A stretch of 8,098 nt of DNA from a virus (IMGVR_UViG_2531839474_000001:1-8098), one strand, 5' to 3'. Positions 1 through 8,098 are shown, counted from the first letter of the stretch. Numbers and translations are program-made. The notes: generated by a model from the letters alone, not told the origin.

Positions 1-263
1 CGCGCCACTGTACATCTGGCCACCCTGATACCTTCGCGTAACAACTGGCGCCAGACTTTACGCACACCGTACACCTGATGATTTTCATCGTATACGCGCT
101 GTATCTCTCTCTTCAGCCAGTCATCGCGCTGAGCACGGGCACTGCGTTTATCAGGATGATGTCGCTGTTGCTGACAGTGGTAATACGTTGACGGGGCAAT
201 ATGCAGTTCACTGCATACCGGTCCGACCCCGTACTGCTCACGCAGCTTATCCAGCAGCGGCAT
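1..263 (-). CDS. IS3-family transposase OrfB (DDE catalytic part), N-terminal portion only; continues past the window edge
   Basis: Minus-strand frame -1 relative to orfA starts at an ATG overlapping the orfA stop and translates [88 protein letters not shown], consistent with IS629 OrfB. Open to position 1. Confidence 0.8.
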   Translation of the reverse strand, partial: MPLLDKLREQYGVGPVCSELHIAPSTYYHCQQQRHHPDKRSARAQRDDWLKREIQRVYDENHQVYGVRKVWRQLLREGIRVARCTVA

Positions 264-589
264 TATTTTTTCCAGAGGCGGTCGAACTCCGCCTTCGCAA
301 AATAAGCGGAAGCCTGGCGAAGGATATCGTTACTGCGGCGCAGTTCACGATTTTCACGTTCCAGCTCTTTCAGACGCTGACGTTCAGCGGTGGTGAGTCC
401 ACCATCACCACTCCCGGTATCCCGCTCATGCTGACGAACCCACACACGCAGAGTCTCTGGTGTACAGCCAATCTTTGGGGCAATGGAACAAATTGCCGCC
501 CATTGTGAGTCATATTCGCCCTGACTTTCCAGAACCATACGAACTGCCCGTTGACGGACCTCGGGGGAAAAACGTGTATTTTTAGTCAT
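263..589 (-). CDS. IS3-family transposase OrfA (helix-turn-helix, leucine-zipper part)
   Basis: 108-aa [54 protein letters not shown]...[28 protein letters not shown], matching my memory of IS629 OrfA. It ends in LWKK with an A-rich run (tggaaaaaataatg on the minus strand) at the overlap with orfB. Confidence 0.9.
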
Positions 590-667
590 CCTGTTTACCT
601 CTTTCTCAGGGAGTTTAGTCTCCAGGATTCCCGGGGCGGTTCAGTTCGGACTGAAAGGAGCAAGTGT

Positions 668-958
668 ATGACGGGCAAAGAGGCAATTATTCATTACCTG
701 GGGACGCATAATAGCTTCTGTGCGCCGGACGTTGCCGCGCTAACAGGCGCAACAGTAACCAGCATAAATCAGGCCGCGGCTAAAATGGCACGGGCAGGTC
801 TTCTGGTTATCGAAGGTAAGGTCTGGCGAACGGTGTATTACCGGTTTGCTACCAAGGAAGAACGGGAAGGAAAGATGAGCACGAACCTAATTTTTAAGGA
901 GTGTCGCCAGAGTGCCGCGATGAAACGGGTATTGGCGGTATATGGAGTTAAAAGATGA
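668..958 (+). CDS. hypothetical phage protein, possible winged-helix DNA-binding fold
   Basis: ATG at 668 is preceded by AAGGAG (655..660) at 7 nt spacing; 96 aa. The segment PDVAALTGATVTSINQAAAKMARAGLLVIEGKVWRTVYY resembles a wHTH recognition helix plus wing. The listed ORF 551..958 is an in-frame upstream extension into the IS end and is unlikely to be the real start. Confidence 0.55.
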   Translation: MTGKEAIIHYLGTHNSFCAPDVAALTGATVTSINQAAAKMARAGLLVIEGKVWRTVYYRFATKEEREGKMSTNLIFKECRQSAAMKRVLAVYGVKR

Positions 959-1038
959 CCATCTACATCACTGAGCTAATAACAGGCCTGCTGGTAATCG
1001 CAGGCCTTTTTATTTGGGGGAGAGTAAATCGTGGTTGA
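955..1038 (+). CDS. possible 27-aa hydrophobic peptide (MTIYITELITGLLVIAGLFIWGRVNRG)
   Basis: ATG at 955 overlaps the stop of the upstream gene (ATGA); it has a single predicted transmembrane segment. Too short for composition-based support. Confidence 0.25.
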   Translation: MTIYITELITGLLVIAGLFIWGRVNRG

Positions 1039-1237
1039 GTTGATTTTTTCTGCATTGAGGATTCTCGGTGCTATGTGGATGGTGGCGACGTTCATTGTGG
1101 TTGCCAGCAGTTTTGTCCGGCTGGTAGGCGAAGGTAAAGACCTGGTTGGTGTGCTTTTCGGTAGCATTTTCCTGTGGGTGATTATCGGTGTTGCGCCTGT
1201 CGCTGTAGCAAAAATGGCGTGGCGTTTTGTGAGTTGA
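1031..1237 (+). CDS. small hydrophobic protein, two predicted transmembrane helices (68 aa)
   Basis: GTG start at 1031 overlaps the end of the 27-aa ORF; a GGAGA-like SD lies upstream. Sequence MVELIFSALRILGAMWMVATFIVVASSFVRLVGEGKDLVGVLFGSIFLWVIIGVAPVAVAKMAWRFVS. It is co-oriented and ends 8 nt before ninB. Confidence 0.45.
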   Translation: MVELIFSALRILGAMWMVATFIVVASSFVRLVGEGKDLVGVLFGSIFLWVIIGVAPVAVAKMAWRFVS

Positions 1238-1244
1238 GGTGACA

Positions 1245-1691
1245 ATGAAGCAAATATACATGCTTCGCAACGAAGCAATCAGAAACAACGCCATAGACGC
1301 AATACTCTCACTTCCGATCGACGACAAGTCACCTCACGAAGTCCACATTAAAGAACCAAAGCGGAGCAATCCTCAAAACCGCCTTATGTGGGCGTTATTG
1401 CAGGACGTATCACGTCAGGTGCTTTGGCATGGACAGAGACTTGCGCCGGAGGACTGGAAAGACCTGTTCACTGCCCTGTGGCTTAAGACCAAAAAACTGG
1501 AGCAACGAAGTGTGCCTGGTATCGATGGTGGCGTTGTCATGCTTGGCGTGCGTACCAGCAAAATGCGAAAGGCCAGCATGACTGAGCTTATCGAAATCAT
1601 GTTTTGGTTCGGCTCAGAGCGCAACGTGCGGTGGAGTGATGACTCCCGGCGAGAGTATGAATGGTCACAACGAAAAGGTAGGGCTGCATGA
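1245..1691 (+). CDS. ninB: NinB (Orf-family recombination mediator)
   Basis: Translation MKQIYMLRNEAIRNNAIDAI...NPQNRLMWALLQDVSRQVLWHGQRL...[23 protein letters not shown] aligns along its length with lambda NinB as I recall it (MKKLTFEIRSP...DQNRKLWACLGDVSRQVEWHGRWL...GVKWSDEARLALEWKARWGDRAA). ATG 1245 preferred over the GTG at 1239; stop overlaps the next start. Confidence 0.9.
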   Translation: MKQIYMLRNEAIRNNAIDAILSLPIDDKSPHEVHIKEPKRSNPQNRLMWALLQDVSRQVLWHGQRLAPEDWKDLFTALWLKTKKLEQRSVPGIDGGVVMLGVRTSKMRKASMTELIEIMFWFGSERNVRWSDDSRREYEWSQRKGRAA

Positions 1692-2215
1692 CTATCAAAT
1701 CAAATACACCAGCACACGACAAGGACTGCTGGCAAACGCCGCTTTGGCTTTTTGATGCGCTGGATATTGAGTTTGGATTCTGGCTGGATTCAGCTGCGAG
1801 CGACAAAAATGCTCTGTGCGCTCACTGGCTAACTGAGGCCGACGACGCACTCAATTCTGAGTGGATAAGCCACGGTGCAATCTGGAATAACCCACCGTAC
1901 AGCAATATCAGGCCGTGGGTGGAAAAAGCCGCTGAGCAGTGCATACAACAGCGACAGACGGTAGTGATGCTTGTGCCAGAGGATATGTCTGTCGGATGGT
2001 TCAGCAAGGCTCTGGAGAGTGTTGACGAAGTTCGCATTATCACTGATGGACGGATTAATTTTATCGAACCATCGACAGGGCTGGAGAAGAAGGGAAACAG
2101 TAAAGGCTCCATGCTGCTGATTTGGCGACCGTTCATCAGTCCTCGACGGATGTTTACTACCGTATCCAAAGCGGCATTGATGGCGATCGGGCAGGGCGTC
2201 AGGAGGGCGGCATGA
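1688..2215 (+). CDS. phage Dam-like DNA N6-adenine methyltransferase
   Basis: 175 aa with the catalytic NPPY motif ([10 protein letters not shown]) and an N-terminal [17 protein letters not shown] region typical of the phage Dam family found in lambdoid nin regions. ATGA overlap with ninB stop and ninE start. No restriction endonuclease gene is adjacent. Confidence 0.8.
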
Positions 2216-2394
2216 GGCGACAGCGACGAAGTTTCACCGACATCATCTGCGAAAACTGCAAATACCTTCCAACGAAACGCTACAGAAATAAACGCAAGCC
2301 AATCCCAAAAGAATCTGACGTAAAAACCTTCAATTACACGGCTCACCTGTGGGATATCCGGTGGCTAAGAAATCGTGCGAGGAAAACAAGGTGA
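2212..2394 (+). CDS. ninE: NinE
   Basis: [60 protein letters not shown] is near-identical to lambda NinE from memory. AGGAGG lies 5 nt upstream of the ATG. The listed ORF 2122..2394 is an in-frame upstream extension. Confidence 0.9.
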
Positions 2395-2561
2395 TTGACC
2401 AAAATCGAAGTTACGAACAAGAAAGCGTCGAGCGAGCTTTAACGTGCGCTAACTGCGGTCAGAAGCTGCATGTGCTGGAAGTTCACGTATGTGAGCACTG
2501 CTGCGCAGAACTGATGAGCGATCCGAATAGCTCAATGTACGAGGAAGAAAACGATGAGTGA
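2391..2561 (+). CDS. ninF: NinF (Cys-rich zinc-ribbon-like)
   Basis: From GTG 2391 the product [56 protein letters not shown] matches lambda NinF ([28 protein letters not shown]...). GAGGA SD lies 7 nt upstream; the upstream ATG at 2349 would overlap ninE by 46 nt. Confidence 0.85.
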
Positions 2562-2823
2562 TTTCTCTGAGCTTATTTCCTTCAAAAAAGACAGAGAAGA
2601 AATGCGGACTGAATCTGTCTATTACGTTCAACACCGGAATAAACGCTCGGTGCTTGATCAGGAGTTGGTTATTACCGGAGACCTGGCATTCAGAACATAT
2701 AAGGCCAGCATGGAAATGAAGGATTTCCCTAAATGTGGTTCTGAAAGAGAAGCTGCGTTAAAGCTGGCTGAGTGGATGCAGAGAATGGCTGCTGCAATTG
2801 AGAATTACTGGAGTGAACCATAA
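2554..2823 (+). CDS. hypothetical nin-region protein (89 aa), function unknown
   Basis: Complete ORF translationally coupled at both ends (ATG overlaps the ninF stop; its TAA overlaps the next ATG). I do not recognise it as a lambda nin protein. Confidence 0.6.
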   Translation: MSDFSELISFKKDREEMRTESVYYVQHRNKRSVLDQELVITGDLAFRTYKASMEMKDFPKCGSEREAALKLAEWMQRMAAAIENYWSEP

Positions 2824-3113
2824 TGGCTAACCTACGCAAAGAAGCGCGCGGCAGAGAATGCCAGGTACGTATTTACGGCGTATGCAATGGCAATCCTGAA
2901 ACTACAGTTCTGGCACATTACCGGATGGCTGGAATTTGCGGAACGGGAATGAAGCCTGACGACCTGATCGGCGCATGGGCTTGTAGCGCGTGTCACGATG
3001 AAATCGACCGACGCACAATGATTATCGACAACAAAGATGCCAGACTTTACCACCTCGAAGGCGTGATCAGGACGCAGGCGATACTGCTGAAGGAGGGGAA
3101 GATTAAGTCATGA
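2823..3113 (+). CDS. ybcO: YbcO-like DUF1364 protein (putative metal-binding nuclease)
   Basis: 96 aa, MANLRKEARGRECQVRIYGVCNGNPETTVLAHYRMAGICGTGMKPDDLIGAWACSACHDEIDRR..., with the conserved Cys/His pattern I recall from DLP12 YbcO. Recognition is from memory. Confidence 0.75.
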   Translation: MANLRKEARGRECQVRIYGVCNGNPETTVLAHYRMAGICGTGMKPDDLIGAWACSACHDEIDRRTMIIDNKDARLYHLEGVIRTQAILLKEGKIKS

Positions 3114-3472
3114 ACGAATATCAGTTTGTGCTTCCATACCCGCCGTCGTTGAATACCTACTGGCGAAGACGGGGAAGCCAATACTACATCAGCGATAAAG
3201 GCCAGAAATACCGAAAAGACGTTCAGCAAATCATCCACCAACTCAAGTTAGATATTTTCACCAAATCACGACTCCGCATCAAAGTCATCGCAGACGTTCC
3301 AGACTCCCGCCGCCGCGACCTCGATAACATCCTGAAAGGTTTACTCGACTCCCTTATCCACGCCGGATTTGCGGAAGACGACGAGCAATTCGATGACATT
3401 CGCGTAATTCGTGGTGTGAAAGTACCAGGCGGAAGGCTTGGAATAAAAATCACCGAACTGGAGAACGCATGA
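3110..3472 (+). CDS. rusA: RusA Holliday-junction resolvase
   Basis: 120 aa; the motifs LPYPPSLNTYWRRRG, DVPDSRRRDLDNILKGLLDSL and GGRLGIKITELE match the RusA family (E. coli RusA: LPWPPSNNRYYRHNRG...PDRRRRDLDNLQKAAFDAL...GGRLELTITEM). Confidence 0.9.
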   Translation: MNEYQFVLPYPPSLNTYWRRRGSQYYISDKGQKYRKDVQQIIHQLKLDIFTKSRLRIKVIADVPDSRRRDLDNILKGLLDSLIHAGFAEDDEQFDDIRVIRGVKVPGGRLGIKITELENA

Positions 3473-3657
3473 ACGCCACAATTCAAACGATACCAGAGCT
3501 TCTTATCCATACACGAGGCAATCAGACCGAAGTGGCAAGGATGCTTTCCTGCGCAAGAGGAACAGTGCTCAAGTACAACCGAGACAGCAAAGGCGAGCGT
3601 CATGTAATAGTTAACGGCGTCCTGATGGTCAAACAGGGCAAGAGGGGAAGACGATGA
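3469..3657 (+). CDS. ninH: NinH
   Basis: 62 aa; TIPELLIHTRGNQTEVARMLSCARGTVLKYNRDSKGERHVIVNGVLMV matches lambda NinH (TIPDMLVEAYGNQTEVARRLKCSRGTVRKYVDDKDGKMHAIVNDVLMV). Start and stop both in ATGA overlaps. Confidence 0.85.
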   Translation: MNATIQTIPELLIHTRGNQTEVARMLSCARGTVLKYNRDSKGERHVIVNGVLMVKQGKRGRR

Positions 3658-4277
3658 GACTCGAAAGCGTAGCTAAATTTCATTCGCCAAAAAGCCCGAT
3701 GATGAGCGACTCACCACGGGCCACGGCTTCTGACTCTCTTTCCGGTACTGATGTGATGGCTGCTATGGGGATGGCACAATCACAGGCCGGATTCGGTATG
3801 GCTGCATTCTGCGGTAAGCATGAACTCAGCCAGAACGACAAACAAAAGGCTATCAACTATCTGATGCAATTTGCACACAAGGTATCGGGGAAATACCGTG
3901 GTGTGGCAAAGCTCGAAGGAAATACTAAGGCAAAGGTACTGCAAGTGCTCGCAACATTCGCTTATGCGGATTATTGCCGTAGTGCCGCTACGCCGGGCGC
4001 AAGATGCAGAGATTGCCACGGTACAGGCCGTGCGGTTGATATAGCCAAAACAGAGCAGTGGAGGATAGTTGCTGAGAAAGAGTGCGGAAGATGTAAAGGC
4101 GTCGGTTATTCAAGAATGCCAGCAAGCGCCGCATATCGCGCTGTGACGATGCTAATCCCAAACCTTACCCAACCCACCTGGTCACGCACTGTTAAGCCGC
4201 TGTATGACGCTCTGGTTGTGCAATGCCACAAGGAAGAGTCAATCGCAGACAACATTTTGAATGCGATCACACGTTAG
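3654..4277 (+). CDS. Q: late-gene antiterminator Q (lambda type)
   Basis: 207 aa, MRLESVAKFHSPKSPMMSDSPRATASDSLSGTDVMAAMGMAQSQAGFGMAAFCGKHELSQNDKQKAINYLMQFAHKVSGKYRGVAKLEGNTKAKVLQVLATFAYADYCRSAATPGARCRDCHGTGR..., essentially the lambda Q sequence as I recall it, including the Cys-rich zinc-binding region. Confidence 0.95.
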   Translation: MRLESVAKFHSPKSPMMSDSPRATASDSLSGTDVMAAMGMAQSQAGFGMAAFCGKHELSQNDKQKAINYLMQFAHKVSGKYRGVAKLEGNTKAKVLQVLATFAYADYCRSAATPGARCRDCHGTGRAVDIAKTEQWRIVAEKECGRCKGVGYSRMPASAAYRAVTMLIPNLTQPTWSRTVKPLYDALVVQCHKEESIADNILNAITR

Positions 4278-4319
4278 CGCCATGATTGCCACGGATGGCA
4301 ACATATTAACGGCATAATA

Positions 4320-4375
4320 TTGACTTTTTGAATAACTTTGGGGAAACTTGACACCAATAATGGGCGTTTTTTACA
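4320..4375 (+). promoter_or_regulatory. late promoter pR' with Q-utilisation (qut) region
   Basis: TTGACT (4320..4325), a 17-nt spacer TTTTGAATAACTTTGGG, then GAAACT (4343..4348). This is collinear with lambda pR' (TTGACT-TATTGAATAAAATTGGG-TAAATT-TGACTCAACGATGGG) and sits just downstream of Q. Similarity to lambda ends shortly after the expected transcription start. Confidence 0.6.
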
Positions 4376-4514
4376 TGTCATTGATGAGTCTCAATAACCT
4401 GCCGCCGAGTAGTTTTTATGCTCTGAATTGTATTTGTGTAGTAAACATGCTGACTGCAATGTAATAGAGTTTTTTTAGCCTGTAACCTCTTGACGGCATT
4501 GAATTGCTTTTGTT

Positions 4515-5225
4515 ATGAGTTGTAAGCCAATGTTATCATCTTGTATTGGGGTGGTTATGAAGGATGGTGCGCTGCTCAGGAGTTCTTCACTTTTTATTGC
4601 CTACATGGGATGCCTTGGATGGGGGAGTGCTTATTTCTATGGATGGGGTACTTCTTTTTACTACGGCTTCCCATGGTGGATTGTAGGTGCAGGTGTTGAT
4701 GATGTTGCCAGAAGTTTATTTTTTGCAGTTATCGTCATTGCTATATTTCTTATCGGTTGGGGTATTGGTGTTGTATTCTTTTTCGCAGTGAAAAGAAAAC
4801 ATTCTATGCAAGAGCTAAATGTATTTCGCCTTTATTTTGCTGTGGAATTATTGTTTGTGCCGGCAATTATTGAGTTTTCTATATTGAGACAGAAGATTCA
4901 GGTACCTCTTTTGCTACTGTCAGCAGCGATTGCGCTGGCGGTTACAATTTCGATAAGATCTTATGGGCGATTTTTATCGGTATCATGCTTCTATGATAAG
5001 CCATTTATAAAAAAACATTTTTTTGAGATTGTGATGATTGCTTTTGTGGCATATTTCTGGCTTTTTTCATTTCTGACAGGATATTACAAACCACAGTTTA
5101 AGAAAGAATATGAAATGATTAATTATAATGATGGTTGGTATTATGTTCTTGCTCATTATGATAATTGTCTGGTTTTGTCTACTTCTTTCAATGCAGGTAG
5201 TAAAAGGTTTGTCATTTATCAATAA
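4515..5225 (+). CDS. uncharacterised polytopic inner-membrane protein (cargo gene in the Q-S interval)
   Basis: Only long ORF in a clearly AT-rich stretch; 236 aa from ATG 4515 (alternative starts at 4530 and 4557, none with a strong SD). About five hydrophobic helices (e.g. SLFFAVIVIAIFLIGWGIGVVFFFAV, VPLLLLSAAIALAVTISI, FFEIVMIAFVAYFWLFSFLTG) and an aromatic-rich C-terminal tail. No recognisable family. Confidence 0.6.
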   Translation: MSCKPMLSSCIGVVMKDGALLRSSSLFIAYMGCLGWGSAYFYGWGTSFYYGFPWWIVGAGVDDVARSLFFAVIVIAIFLIGWGIGVVFFFAVKRKHSMQELNVFRLYFAVELLFVPAIIEFSILRQKIQVPLLLLSAAIALAVTISIRSYGRFLSVSCFYDKPFIKKHFFEIVMIAFVAYFWLFSFLTGYYKPQFKKEYEMINYNDGWYYVLAHYDNCLVLSTSFNAGSKRFVIYQ

Positions 5226-5406
5226 GCACAAGATAAGAATCTTCAGGTTGATATTGTAAGGACCAGAATTTAATTGGCTGCATAAATAATATTTTAAGTT
5301 GCAAGTTGGCTATTCGTAGGAATAGAACCTTAGGCATGCTGAATGCGTTTTCTGAACATTGTTTTATAAACTGTGTCTGCTTGCTGTTGTGATCCTGCTT
5401 TTAGTG

Positions 5407-5517
5407 ATGGTGATGATGGATTTCACCAGCAGGATAATGTTGGTACTGACTGATGGCGCTCTGGTCTGCGGCATTGTGGTATTGCTGTGGCCGATGATGA
5501 AAGAACAGAATGAATAA
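5407..5517 (+). CDS. possible small hydrophobic peptide (36 aa, MVMMDFTSRIMLVLTDGALVCGIVVLLWPMMKEQNE)
   Basis: Short ORF with one predicted transmembrane segment, lying antisense to a listed minus-strand ORF. No convincing SD; in-frame GTG/TTG alternatives lie upstream. Speculative. Confidence 0.2.
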   Translation: MVMMDFTSRIMLVLTDGALVCGIVVLLWPMMKEQNE

Positions 5518-5703
5518 TTCTTGACTTTTTTGTTTACTGTTTATTAAAAAATCAACCGCATGGTGAATCCTCCTTGGAGGGGCTAAATGATCGAGTTTTA
5601 AGGGCACGTAGCGAGTTCTGTTTGATCATTGCAGAACTTAGCGGGAGGCGCCATGCGTACATCACTAATGTTATTTCCTTCTATCATTTTCCTTGTGAGT
5701 TCT

Positions 5704-5730
5704 GGCTGCGCATGGCGCGGCCTTTTTTTT
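5704..5730 (+). terminator. rho-independent terminator (plus-strand orientation)
   Basis: GGCTGCGC (5704..5711), loop ATG, GCGCGGCC (5715..5722) forms an 8-bp GC-rich stem with one G-U pair, followed by a run of eight T (5723..5730). Confidence 0.6.
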
Positions 5731-5919
5731 ATGACCTGCCACTGGCAGATGGTCATCCTGTGATTTGATTCCGGTTCCGGCTTTTTAACTCTGTTCCTGT
5801 ACACGGGAGAAATTCTATGTCGATTAATCGTTATGATATTGGTTACAAGAAGTACCACGTATTGTGTTGAGATAGAAAGCATGGTGCCAGAGGTAAATGC
5901 AGCAGCATAATAAAAAAGA

Positions 5920-5959
5920 GCCAGCGCAGAAGAGAACGGGTAAAAGAGTCTGCGCTGGC
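5920..5959. repeat. perfect 11-bp inverted repeat (GCCAGCGCAGA / TCTGCGCTGGC) separated by 18 nt
   Basis: Arms at 5920..5930 and 5949..5959. A second small hairpin GGGG-ATATT-CCCC follows at 5962..5974. No T-run follows either, so it is not a canonical intrinsic terminator. Confidence 0.55.
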
Positions 5960-6075
5960 GTGGGGATATTCCCCGTGGAGAAATGATATGTAACACACAT
6001 CGGGAACCTTTCTATATAAACATTATCATTATTGTCAATCATAACAGTCAGGTATTATGACGTTTATGCATCAGG

Positions 6076-6104
6076 GCCATCAGGAATTAACTGGTGGCTT
6101 TTTA
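6076..6104 (+). terminator. rho-independent terminator about 35 nt upstream of the holin start
   Basis: GCCATCAG (6076..6083), loop GAATTAA, CTGGTGGC (6091..6098) forms an 8-bp stem with one G-U pair, followed by TTTTTATTG. Confidence 0.5.
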
Positions 6105-6138
6105 TTGTTGTCAGCTTCCGGATAACGGGAGACGGGGT

Positions 6139-6354
6139 ATGTACCAGATGGAAAAAATAACAACAGGTGTGTCATACACCACGTCAGCGGTGGGGACGGG
6201 ATACTGGCTACTGCAGTTGCTGGACAAAGTCTCTCCGTCCCAGTGGGTGGCAATAGGTGTGCTGGGAAGTCTGCTGTTTGGCCTGCTGACGTATCTGACA
6301 AATCTTTATTTCAAGATTAAAGAAGATAAGCGTAAGGCTGCGAGAGGTGAATAA
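6139..6354 (+). CDS. S: class II holin (phage 21 S-type pinholin) with dual-start motif
   Basis: From ATG 6139 the product [71 protein letters not shown] (71 aa) matches phage 21 S as recalled ([68 protein letters not shown]). A second in-frame ATG at 6148 gives the shorter form. Stop overlaps the endolysin ATG. Confidence 0.9.
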
Positions 6355-6851
6355 TGTCGCCGTCATTACGCAAGGCTGTTGCAGCTGCTATTGGTGGTGG
6401 GGCTGTTGCCATAGCGTCTGTGCTCATCACTGGTCCAGGTGGTAACGATGGTCTGGAAGGTGTCAGCTACATACCATACAAAGATATCGTTGGCGTATGG
6501 ACTGTATGTCACGGACACACCGGAAAAGACATCATGCCCGGTAAAACGTATACCGAAGCAGAATGCAAAGCCCTCCTGAATAAAGACCTTGCCACGGTCG
6601 CCAGACAAATTAACCCGTACATCAACGTCGATATACCGGAAACAACGCGCGGCGCTCTTTACTCGTTCGTTTACAACGTGGGCGCTGGCAATTTCAGAAC
6701 ATCGACGCTTCTTCGCAAAATAAACCAGGGCGATATCAAAGGCGCATGTGATCAGCTACGGCGCTGGACATACGCTGGCGGTAAGCAATGGAAAGGGCTG
6801 ATGACTCGCCGCGAGATTGAGCGTGAAGTCTGTTTGTGGGGGCAACAATGA
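6354..6851 (+). CDS. R: SAR endolysin (phage 21 R-type lysozyme with N-terminal signal-anchor-release domain)
   Basis: 165 aa; N-terminal Gly/Ala-rich weakly hydrophobic segment [20 protein letters not shown] followed by a lysozyme catalytic region ([25 protein letters not shown]). Near-identical to phage 21 R as I recall it. Confidence 0.95.
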
Positions 6852-7285
6852 GCAGGGTAACCGTTATTATCTCCGCTCTGGTTATCTGCATTATCGCCTG
6901 CCTGTCATGGGCTGTTAATCATTACCGTGATAACGCCATCGCCTACAAAGAGCAGCGCGATAAAGCCACATCCATCATCGCTGATATGCAGAAGCGGCAA
7001 CGTGATGTAGCAGAACTTGACGCCAGATACACAAAGGAGCTTGCTGATGCTAATGCGACTATCGAAAGTCTCCGTGCTGATGTTTCTGCTGGGCGTAAGC
7101 GCCTGCAAGTCTCCGCCACCTGTGCAAAGTCAACGACCGGAGCCAGCAGCATGGGCGATGGAGAAAGCCCAGGACTTACAGCAGATGCTGAACTCAATTA
7201 TTACCGTCTCCGAGGTGGAATCGACAAGATAACCGCGCAGGTTAACTACCTGCAGGAATACATCAGGACGCAGTGCTTAAAATAA
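6848..7285 (+). CDS. Rz: Rz i-spanin
   Basis: From ATG 6848, [39 protein letters not shown]...RLQVSATC...QCLK matches lambda Rz ([39 protein letters not shown]...). N-terminal transmembrane anchor plus coiled-coil periplasmic domain. ATGA overlap with the endolysin stop. Confidence 0.9.
7047..7232 (+). CDS. Rz1: Rz1 o-spanin (outer-membrane lipoprotein), embedded in the +1 frame of Rz
   Basis: AAGGAG (7034..7039) lies 7 nt upstream of ATG 7047. Product [36 protein letters not shown]... has a signal peptide, a lipobox-like VSAC and a Pro-rich mature part, as in lambda Rz1. The start could instead be 7017 or 7053. Confidence 0.75.
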
Positions 7286-7322
7286 TTTTAATTTCACTGA
7301 AATTTAACAAGTGACTTTCAGG

Positions 7323-7352
7323 AAAATGCCTCGCAGATGCGGGGCATTTTTG
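7323..7352 (+). terminator. rho-independent terminator after the lysis cassette, possibly bidirectional
   Basis: ATGCCTCGC (7326..7334), loop AGAT, GCGGGGCAT (7339..7347) forms a 9-bp stem with one G-U pair, flanked by AAAA upstream and TTTTT downstream. Confidence 0.6.
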
Positions 7353-7434
7353 TACCGGTATTTCACCGCGCACCGCAGCGCACAATAAACACCGAACCTG
7401 ACCCTTTGGAATGGGCCTTTGAGGATACCAGTTA

Positions 7435-8052
7435 GTGCTGGCGAGCCTCGGTGGGCTGGTTTCCTGTGCGGCAAAGGTTCATTTCAAAGAAGCAGGCAAC
7501 GCCATGAATGAATTAATTGCGAATCATGACTTCGACTTTCGCCAGTTAGTTACCGCAGCAGAAGGTCAACCGGTAACTGACACCTTCCAGATTGCCAGGG
7601 CATTTGGTAAACGCCATCAGCATGTGATTAGGGCTATTAAATGTTTGAGATGTTCTGAGGAATTCTCGACAACCCATTTTTGGGCCGTCGAGAAAATCAA
7701 TGACTTAGGGATTTTTGACAAGAAACAGATTTACTACCGCATGGACTTTAGTGGCTTCGTTATGCTGGTTATGGGATTTAACGGGGCAAAAGCCGATGCT
7801 GTTAAAGAAGCCTATATCAATGCGTTTAACTGGATGTCAGCAGAACTCCGTAAGTACAGCGAAAGTTATGAAGCAGAACGTAACGCCGTAATGCTGGAGT
7901 ACATGAAAGAGAAGGATGTCGCCAGCATGTCAGGCCGTCTGCTCAATCGCTGGGGGAGAACGAAAAAACCTCAATTGCTTGCAAAGCTGGAACGTCTGGA
8001 GAGACAGGGACAGTTTTTATTACCGGGATTCGATAAAGGTATTCAAGCCTGA
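7435..8052 (+). CDS. Rha-family phage regulatory protein (often annotated as antirepressor)
   Basis: The segment PVTDTFQIARAFGKRHQHVIRAIKCL...YYRMDFSGFVMLVMGFNGAKADAVKEAYINAF resembles the Rha domain (compare SSREIAELTGKQHKHVLRDI in known Rha proteins). GTG start at 7435 has a GAGGA SD about 9 nt upstream; ATG 7504 (MNELIANHDF...) is an alternative start. Confidence 0.65.
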   Translation: MLASLGGLVSCAAKVHFKEAGNAMNELIANHDFDFRQLVTAAEGQPVTDTFQIARAFGKRHQHVIRAIKCLRCSEEFSTTHFWAVEKINDLGIFDKKQIYYRMDFSGFVMLVMGFNGAKADAVKEAYINAFNWMSAELRKYSESYEAERNAVMLEYMKEKDVASMSGRLLNRWGRTKKPQLLAKLERLERQGQFLLPGFDKGIQA

Positions 8053-8098
8053 CACATTATGCGCTGTATCGTCGCCGTATTCCCGCATTAACCATGAC

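Follow-up and report, generated by a model that had tools for sequence, protein, structure and literature searches.

The region between the antiterminator gene Q and the lysis genes of the viral sequence IMGVR_UViG_2531839474_000001:1-8098 (hereafter the window, that is, the whole stretch of 8,098 nucleotides [nt] that was analyzed, to which all coordinates refer unless another locus is named) occupies positions 4279-6138, 1860 nt, and is very likely the late-operon leader of a lambda-Q-type lambdoid prophage with a previously described moron cassette. From left to right, it holds the qut site and late promoter pR', a TfpB-family membrane-protein gene, a DUF3927 gene, the small RNA (sRNA) gene pasD1 with its terminator, both ends of an esterase gene lost by deletion, the sRNA EcOnc32, and a hairpin with a T-run that precedes the pinholin gene. 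The architecture of this cassette is already known: Tree et al. (2014) laid out moron coding sequences and convergent sRNAs 3' of pR' for Sakai prophages, including Sp3, validation of PasD1 followed in 2021, and the synteny was surveyed in 2026. Near-identical loci occur in three reference pathogens in which experiments detected both RNAs. According to the data published for such copies, identical or nearly so, in other strains, uninduced lysogens produce the two RNAs, each of which binds Hfq and is found in chimeras with mRNAs of the host.

The interval stands apart from its surroundings in base composition and in its distribution among lambdoid phages. Its G+C content is 0.392, against 0.498 in the left flank (590-4278) and 0.488 in the right flank (6139-8098), and sliding 300-nt windows had a mean of 0.390 and a minimum of 0.30 inside, with a mean of 0.498 ± 0.026 (standard deviation) and a minimum of 0.43 outside. 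The drop is sharpest at 4279-5557 (0.36-0.38) and milder at 5558-6138 (0.43-0.47). On the left, the interval is bounded by a lambda-type antiterminator Q gene (3654-4277, + strand), a 207-amino-acid open reading frame (ORF) matching Pfam PF03589 Antiterm at 2.7e-55, whose protein accession, WP_001235460.1, is also that of prophage PP4 of E2348/69 and of O26 11368. On the right, it ends at a phage-21-type class II holin gene, or pinholin (6139-6354, + strand; Pfam PF04971, 1.4e-32), which is followed by signal-anchor-release (SAR) endolysin and then spanin genes. Matches to HK97, HK022, mEp-type, and lambda-like phages were confined to 4281-4357/4364, the segment that carries the late promoter and qut annotation in the matching phage records, such that qut/pR' is all that the window has in common with lambda, HK97, and HK022-type phages. 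Similarity of the lambda type breaks off about 40 nt past pR'. Presence and absence combined with deviant composition make this a moron in the sense of Juhala et al. (2000); as for a promoter and terminator of its own, the terminators are clear, the promoters are predicted, and expression in lysogens has been seen in E2348/69 and Sakai. The scan of the interval for tRNA genes returned zero, and no interval ORF was of suitable size or family for stxAB. The initial annotation, made from the DNA alone, had described an AT-rich insert at the classic moron site between Q/pR' and the lysis genes, with similarity to lambda ending soon after pR', lysis genes resuming at 6139, and content other than stx, and each of these points was borne out.

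That annotation had also recognized nothing in the content, whereas the arrangement proved to be widespread. By megablast, the whole interval was present at a coverage of at least 80% in 586 of 5,426 complete E. coli genomes, with 537 records at least 99% identical, and the cassette was enriched among enteropathogenic (EPEC), enterohemorrhagic (EHEC), and Shiga toxin-producing (STEC) E. coli genomes. Over the 1860 nt, O26:H11 11368 differed from the window at 2 positions and the EPEC E2348/69 prophage PP4 at 6, and a prophage in the chicken isolate Z1323CEC0016 was 99.88% identical over 643-8098. The O157:H7 Sakai prophage Sp3 was 96.4% identical over 4396-7056, phage 2B8 about 98% over 4279-5841, and phage 434 and the E2348/69 prophage PP2, which share the left part, about 98% over 4396-5841. 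This left module is preceded by a lambda-type Q in 2B8 and PP4, as in the window, and by an unrelated Q82-type Q in 434, PP2, and Sp3, a pattern expected of a retained cassette. Two findings would have spoken against a cargo insert, namely a conserved arrangement without compositional discontinuity and a match of the membrane protein to a well-characterized family; the arrangement is indeed common, yet the shift in composition was confirmed, and the membrane protein belongs to no characterized family.

Very close in organization is PP4 (E2348C_1011 to E2348C_1014, with pasD1), which has the same Q accession and gene order and identical PasD1 and EcOnc32-type elements; it differs from the window in reading TCA rather than TAA at 5223-5225, which leaves the window's membrane protein 16 amino acids shorter, and in a few other point differences. 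Sp3 likewise has convergent EcOnc13 and EcOnc32 at the moron site, and the window contains each of the two published Hfq peaks as an exact string, whereas the Q of Sp3 is of the Q82 type; Tree et al. (2014) did not study the targets of EcOnc13 or EcOnc32. The late leaders of 434, 2B8, and PP2 run TfpB-like gene, TciB/DUF3927 gene, PasD2, nanS-p esterase, PasA/PasC, holin, and are collinear with the window over 4396-5841. Unlike the window, they keep the 1,851-nt SASA esterase gene, carry the PasD2 variant, and have PasA/PasC in the slot held by EcOnc32; 2B8 has a lambda-type Q and pR' as in the window, while 434 and PP2 have a Q82-type antiterminator and an intact tR'-like hairpin. Stx-phage late regions (Q, tRNAs, stxAB, nanS-p, S R Rz) share the insertion slot, the logic of Q-dependent read-through, and a 3' nanS-p stump with the window, which lacks stx, tRNA genes, and an intact esterase.

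These comparisons reveal how the interval came to its present form. Identity to 434, 2B8, and PP2 ends at 5841, 25 nt into the 1,851-nt esterase gene, and resumes at 81-83% near the end of that gene. The window thus retains the stumps of a deleted nanS-p (SASA sialate O-acetylesterase) gene at 5817-5926 (+ strand): the ribosome-binding site with the first 25 nt (5817-5841), then about 85 nt of the 3' end, with the junction at 5841/5842 showing the microhomology GAT(G/A)TT. The segment 5842-5926 matches the yjhS/nanS-p 3' end in 271 phage records, mostly of Stx phages, and the leftover reading frame has 17 codons (5817-5870) in place of an intact ORF of about 616 amino acids. From these sequence comparisons, the interval is a deletion derivative of a longer nanS-p-bearing cassette and not the single cargo island first proposed.

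The first of the two RNA genes, pasD1 (5558-5730, + strand), corresponds to EcOnc13 of Sakai Sp3 and is identical at 173 of 173 positions to PasD1 of E2348/69, given as NC_011601 1060260-1060432 (+), 173 nt, in PP4 by Pearl Mizrahi et al. (2021; Table S6), who validated it by northern blotting and reported it as Hfq dependent there. Of the PasD RNAs, which measure 172-173 nt, PasD2 differs from the window copy at 5 positions. The window copy contains the published seed UGUGAG within UUGUGAG, followed by the stem-loop GGCUGCGC-AUG-GCGCGGCC and U8; its location is likewise that of PasD, in a lambdoid prophage, 3' of Q, and beside the holin/lysozyme operon. The 3' hairpin of the PasD1 fold is the intrinsic terminator at 5704-5733 (+ strand), with an 8-bp stem containing seven GC pairs followed by T8. 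A promoter is predicted at 5521-5549 (+ strand), with a -35 element TTGACT (5521-5526) and an A/T-rich -10 region (5542-5549) read off the sequence, at a spacing that fits a transcript starting at 5558, the position to which the published 5' end of PasD1 corresponds. The Hfq peak of EcOnc13 (Sp3 901332-901382, +, about 187 nt; Tree et al. 2014, Table S2) was an exact match to 5664-5714.

A common origin of STnc100 and the PasD sRNAs has been proposed in a preprint by Zhu, Shabalina, and Storz (2026), who place pasD 5' of the 2B8 sialate esterase and pasD1 immediately beside the holin operon. The Rfam STnc100 model (RF02076) aligned over its full length at 5528-5733, with 37.7 bits (E 1.6e-5) against a gathering score of 47. 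STnc100 and the window RNA share a location, following a DUF3927 gene and preceding the holin region, as in phage Evi, where STnc100 scores 119.9 bits; the window RNA differs in falling below the gathering score, and its published seed is different. A 64-amino-acid ORF on the + strand (5574-5768, TTG start) was considered as a gene and rejected, as it lies inside PasD1, runs through the terminator, and has no convincing family match. In the phage 434 record, the corresponding "putative membrane protein" CPT_434_70 (434 locus 5162-5350, equivalent to window 5574-5768) lies inside PasD2 and includes the terminator, and is probably an over-call.

The second RNA gene lies on the opposite strand and converges with pasD1. 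EcOnc32, an Esr41-like Hfq-binding sRNA, spans 5911-6015 (- strand), with the 3' end at 5911 and an approximate 5' end at 6005-6022. Tree et al. (2014; Table S2) reported its peak from Hfq cross-linking and analysis of cDNAs (CRAC) at Sp3 901574-901662 on the minus strand, with a northern signal of about 112 nt. Because this published string occurs exactly in the window, at 5906-5994 and in agreement in strand and context, we identify the minus-strand RNA as EcOnc32. The mapping assumes that the coordinates of Tree et al. (2014) are those of NC_002695.2, which is supported because the EcOnc13 peak falls correctly inside pasD1. The RNA ends in a terminator hairpin at 5921-5960 with its U-tract on the minus strand, and its predicted fold (-34.9 kcal/mol, z -7.3) comprises three hairpins and leaves CAUUUCUCCAC single stranded. 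A consensus scan and reading of the sequence gave a predicted promoter at 6022-6051 (- strand; CTGACT-18-GATAAT); an alternative prediction combines TTGACA (6038-6033) with TATAGA (6016-6011), but the former candidate better suits the northern size of about 112 nt.

EcOnc32 was also recovered in RIL-seq data (sequencing of ligated RNA pairs) from E2348/69, in which the identical sequence appears under the coding-sequence label E2348C_1013, corresponds to window 5911-5970, and is always the second RNA of the chimera; the meaning of some columns in the RIL-seq tables was taken from their headers. Chimeras were recorded with the nlpD-rpoS intergenic region (537) and the entC 5' untranslated region (UTR; 263), as well as with the dnaK 5' UTR and an IE2 site, and in both entC and rpoS the site overlaps the start codon. 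The main text of the RIL-seq paper makes no mention of the chimeras with entC and nlpD-rpoS. These contacts, unremarked in published tables, offer a testable link from a prophage to host iron metabolism and stress control. The mean normalized RNA sequencing (RNA-seq) count of E2348C_1013 was 2064, with a log2 fold change of -2.9 without hfq. The EcOnc32 seed is complementary to GUGGAGGAUGAUAUG of entC, in a predicted duplex of -30.4 kcal/mol that was matched by 11 of 300 shuffled sequences.

In several respects EcOnc32 resembles Esr41 (EcOnc14), which also has a single-stranded motif, CAUUUCUCCA, and after it a hairpin of the form GGGG...CCCC and a terminator with GCCAGC. Both have iron-related partners, Esr41 repressing chuA, cirA, and bfr and EcOnc32 forming entC chimeras. 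They differ in the terminator loop (7 nt in Esr41, 25 nt in EcOnc32), have no blastn link, and lie in different places, Esr41 on SpLE1/O-island 43/48 by iha and ter and EcOnc32 in a lambdoid prophage, where it is flanked by the esterase stump and the holin gene. The Rfam Esr41 model (RF02676) aligned to the minus strand at 5999-5910 with 32.3 bits (E 0.004), against a gathering score of 102. PasA/PasC, the RNAs found in this slot in other phages, are alike in position and orientation (antisense to the esterase 3' end and 5' of the holin gene), in having a similar 5' hairpin, and in the GCCAGC terminator, whereas the middle of the RNA is unrelated and EcOnc32 has an extra GGGG/CCCC hairpin. Assignment of the minus-strand RNA to Esr41 proper or to PasA/PasC was therefore rejected, as the Rfam score is below threshold, there is no blastn link, and only the ends align.

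Among the 5,426 genomes, 603 carried EcOnc32, always beneath an annotated "hypothetical protein." In the window, this annotation corresponds to a 132-amino-acid ORF on the minus strand (5598-5996; RefSeq WP_012578864.1, ECs_0817, E2348C_1013), which is very probably not a gene. The ORF spans the 5841/5842 junction and so exists only in the deleted arrangement; its counterpart in the undeleted PP2 carries a RefSeq-flagged frameshift and an internal stop. Its start codon falls within the EcOnc32 gene, and the EcOnc32 terminator comes some 85 nt later. Searches of Pfam, phrog, PADLOC, and NCBIfam gave no convincing family match for either the 132- or the 64-amino-acid ORF. Some 600 complete E. 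coli genomes thus annotate a hypothetical protein where the transcript is an sRNA. The initial annotation had seen about 900 bp with two intrinsic terminators and no convincing long ORF in this part of the interval. The lack of a long ORF held up, but the segment is far from empty, with a 52-amino-acid gene supported by Pfam and, over most of its length, two sRNA genes published in 2014 and 2021, and there are three terminator-like elements in the interval rather than two, at 5704-5733 (+), 5921-5960 (U-tract on the minus strand), and 6073-6106 (+).

Upstream of these genes, the qut site and pR' lie at 4281-4364 (+ strand), with 90-92% identity to the "promoter / lambda Qut site" of HK97, HK022, HK106, mEp234, mEpX1, and others. 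The pR' hexamers, predicted by reading the sequence, are TTGACT at 4320-4325 (-35) and a -10-like GAAACT at 4343-4348. At 4396, where the sequence shared with the Q82-type group (434, PP2, and Sp3) begins, the left edge of the cassette coincides with a decayed hairpin resembling tR' of phage 434 (4396-4423, + strand). In 434, the intact version at locus positions 3980-4007 is a hairpin with a T-run (AACCCGC..GTGGGTTTTTTTT) and is annotated as a terminator; in lambda-Q-type carriers, the window among them, its counterpart lacks 4 nt and bears substitutions. The segment 4340-4480, examined for a terminator between pR' and the membrane-protein gene, folded no better than shuffled sequence. Since the 434-type hairpin has decayed in lambda-Q-type carriers, transcription from pR' meets no good terminator before that of pasD1, which is the first strong + strand terminator past pR'. 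The arrangement resembles the pR'-6S RNA-tR' module of lambda in its logic of Q-dependent read-through and differs in having no recognizable tR' near pR'. A further hairpin, an 11-bp stem followed by the T-run TTTTTATTGTT (6073-6106, + strand; local fold z -4.1), lies 5' of the holin ribosome-binding site. We assign it to the leader of the lysis cassette because 6070-6138 is far commoner than the cassette, occurring in 2,015 of the 5,426 genomes, including ExPEC strains (E. coli pathogenic outside the intestine) without the cassette.

Two protein-coding genes lie between pR' and pasD1. The larger, at 4557-5225 (+ strand), is a truncated allele of a TfpB-family (PF27470) membrane-protein gene whose intact frame would extend to 5273 and encode 238 amino acids. 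It is the single membrane ORF seen in the initial annotation, with possible starts at 4515, 4530, and 4557. The start is likely the ATG at 4557, which is preceded by a Shine-Dalgarno-like GGGGTGG and is the start annotated in E2348/69, whereas RefSeq uses 4530. At the nonsense site (5223-5225; also 5155), position 5224 is A in the window (TAA) and C (TCA) in all five loci compared; the A removes the last 16 amino acids, including the last predicted strand. The short allele is also found as RefSeq WP_141008152.1, from the chicken isolate Z1323CEC0016, and is not found in O26, E2348/69, 434, or 2B8. In the E2348/69 lysogen, the published mean normalized RNA-seq count was 147 for the membrane-protein gene, 6 for Q, and 5 for the holin gene.

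Family membership of this protein is inferred from precomputed tags on its homologues: it is 99% identical to cluster P0001, tagged PF27470 "TfpB," and the same precomputed tag was present on 104 of 104 homologue clusters. The protein also matched phrog_1521 (9e-142), a phrog without an assigned function. No match was found in NCBIfam, PADLOC, or a local copy of Pfam that lacked the PF27470 model; a profile search of Protein Data Bank (PDB) sequences gave no relatives, and no further Pfam domain was detected in ten remote TfpB members. None of four ORFs searched matched a defense component in PADLOC-DB 2.0 at E up to 0.1. A hidden Markov model search of 1.84 billion representatives yielded 76 clusters, enterobacterial and with a uniform architecture of about 240 amino acids, and the alignment showed conservation of an aromatic motif near the N terminus, YFYGWGxSFYYGFPWW, and of a segment at the C-terminal end. 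An AlphaFold2 model built from 27 homologues had five long helices and a C-terminal beta domain of five strands at low confidence (mean pLDDT, the predicted local distance difference test, 57.6), and a Foldseek comparison of this low-confidence model with viral structures gave no match at E up to 0.001.

The smaller gene, at 5359-5517 (+ strand), encodes a small hydrophobic protein of 52 amino acids (DUF3927/"TciB-like"; phrog_1470, RefSeq WP_000499454.1). Its membership of the family is supported by 53 bits against Pfam PF13064 (gathering score 25; 3.4e-14) over residues 7-50. The name TciB traces to a gene label in tciABC of phage P1, genes that are non-essential. Across Enterobacterales, members of the DUF3927 and TfpB families have 45-70% protein identity. 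TfpB homologues follow NinG-Q in Yersinia as single accessory genes. Others, outside prophage late regions, adjoin a Salmonella effector gene resembling sseJ (2,681 sequences in the cluster), lie in a Klebsiella region with insertion sequences (IS), an AraC-type regulator, DsbA, and the STb toxin, or adjoin an AAA_23/AAA_21 ATPase pair near icd. These contexts mark TfpB-family and DUF3927 genes as mobile accessory genes, and two families without a described function travel with virulence-associated DNA in several enterobacteria. An obligate TfpB-DUF3927 pair was considered and rejected, since the Salmonella and Klebsiella TfpB homologues have no DUF3927 neighbor. In phage Evi (locus 2140-3345), Q is followed by three tRNA genes, a TerB-like gene, a DUF3927 gene, and the bona fide STnc100 mentioned above; the TerB-like/DUF3927 pair mirrors tciA-tciB of P1. 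A literature search on the name "TfpB" gave no relevant paper, one NCBI record reading "protein tfpB," and a search on "DUF3927" gave nothing useful. We presume TfpB to be an ORF name from the STb-enterotoxin transposon, an origin that would suit the Klebsiella surroundings of the family.

Taken together, these observations suggest how the leader might work. During lysogeny, both sRNAs would regulate host genes in trans and in an Hfq-dependent manner, PasD1 pairing through its UGUGAG seed, as published for E2348/69, and EcOnc32 putatively repressing entC in an Esr41-like manner through CAUUUCUCCAC as an anti-Shine-Dalgarno seed. The + strand terminators ending at 5733 and 6106 would keep the lysis genes silent until qut-loaded Q drives read-through. 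The membrane-protein genes are probably transcribed weakly in lysogens, from pR' or from a promoter of their own (candidate TTGACG, 4490-4495), and their products may serve as lysogenic-conversion proteins. Because no good terminator precedes 5733, pR' may feed both protein genes in the lysogen. The initial annotation had expected anything in the interval to be expressed upon prophage induction; the published RNA-seq and RIL-seq data of E2348/69 instead place the RNAs in uninduced lysogens, and not in induced cells only.

Several points weigh against this account of the leader. The RNA evidence is a proxy drawn from identical sequence in E2348/69 and Sakai, the promoters of pasD1 and EcOnc32 are predictions, and we infer the reach of the pR' transcript to 5733 from sequence. 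PasD1 and EcOnc32 fall below the Rfam gathering scores of STnc100 and Esr41, so the family links amount to resemblance only. The RNA-seq level of PasD1 is nearly flat without hfq (log2 fold change -0.18), such that the published northern blots are the basis for calling it Hfq dependent, and for rpoS, dnaK, and the IE2 site the pairing predicted with EcOnc32 was no better than in shuffled controls, with only entC standing out. The truncated membrane-protein allele and an IS in gene P, described below, also imply that parts of the cassette may be decaying.

The emphasis could lie with the proteins rather than the RNAs. It is conceivable, though unlikely, that the TfpB-family and DUF3927 products form an envelope conversion module, for superinfection exclusion, phage defense, or colicin tolerance, and are the real payload, with the sRNAs as passengers. 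The membrane-protein gene is transcribed about 25-fold more than Q and the holin gene in the E2348/69 lysogen, TfpB relatives occupy accessory contexts in Yersinia, Salmonella, Klebsiella, and near icd, and DUF3927 is paired with a TerB-like protein in Evi, as in tciA-tciB of P1. Against this, there was no PADLOC match, no solved relative, and no informative fold match from the low-confidence model, the Salmonella and Klebsiella homologues lack a DUF3927 neighbor, "TciB" is only a P1 label for a non-essential gene, and the window allele is truncated. Such a payload is compatible with the favored explanation, a late leader with a moron cassette, and not opposed to it. A more specific proposal, that constitutive transcription from pR' runs through both protein genes and halts only at the pasD1 terminator, this terminator also serves as the functional tR', and the proteins are envelope factors of the lysogen (for exclusion, defense, or tolerance), we regard as unlikely on present evidence. 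EcOnc32 may be an Esr41-type repressor of enterobactin synthesis acting at the entC ribosome-binding site, and this seems likelier than envelope factors fed by pR'.

It is improbable that the interval is an inert AT-rich scar of recombination and deletion, carried in the late leader without a function of its own. The deletion junction, the two gene stumps, the decayed terminator, and the nonsense allele would all fit a scar, and near-identity among genomes could stem from recent spread rather than selection; however, both RNAs are abundant and Hfq associated with reproducible partners in two pathotypes, DUF3927 and TfpB are conserved at the 45-70% level across Enterobacterales, and the left module stands behind two unrelated Q/pR' types. 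There is still less to be said for a protein-coding origin of the roughly 900 bp assigned here to RNAs, through either the 132-amino-acid minus-strand ORF or the 63/64-amino-acid + strand ORF of phage 434, a reading that we hold to be very improbable. Both ORFs are publicly annotated, and high RNA-seq counts are assigned to E2348C_1013, yet those reads pile up on 60-90 nt that correspond to EcOnc32 and end at its terminator; the longer ORF crosses the junction and is broken in the undeleted arrangement, the shorter lies inside PasD1 and continues through the terminator, and neither has a convincing family match. New toxin or virulence cargo of the stx kind, expressed on induction only, has hardly any likelihood at all: the genomic slot is that of stx and the carriers are enriched in EPEC, EHEC, and STEC, but no toxin, enzyme, or secretion-signal features were found, the proteins are hydrophobic and of 222-247 and 52 amino acids, and the RNAs are expressed without induction.

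Outside the interval, the left end of the window (1-642) is an IS3-family element, with an ALIL pseudoknot at 192-308 (- strand; 120.9 bits, Rfam) and orfA at 263-589 (- strand). Homology to the intact sister prophage begins at 643, a point 29 nt short of where replication gene P ends; the element has thus interrupted or replaced gene P, and the prophage is probably replication defective. At the other boundary, the holin ORF begins MYQMEK (N-terminal codons at 6139-6150), with Met at codons 1 and 4, which we take to be the dual-start arrangement of the phage 21 pinholin.

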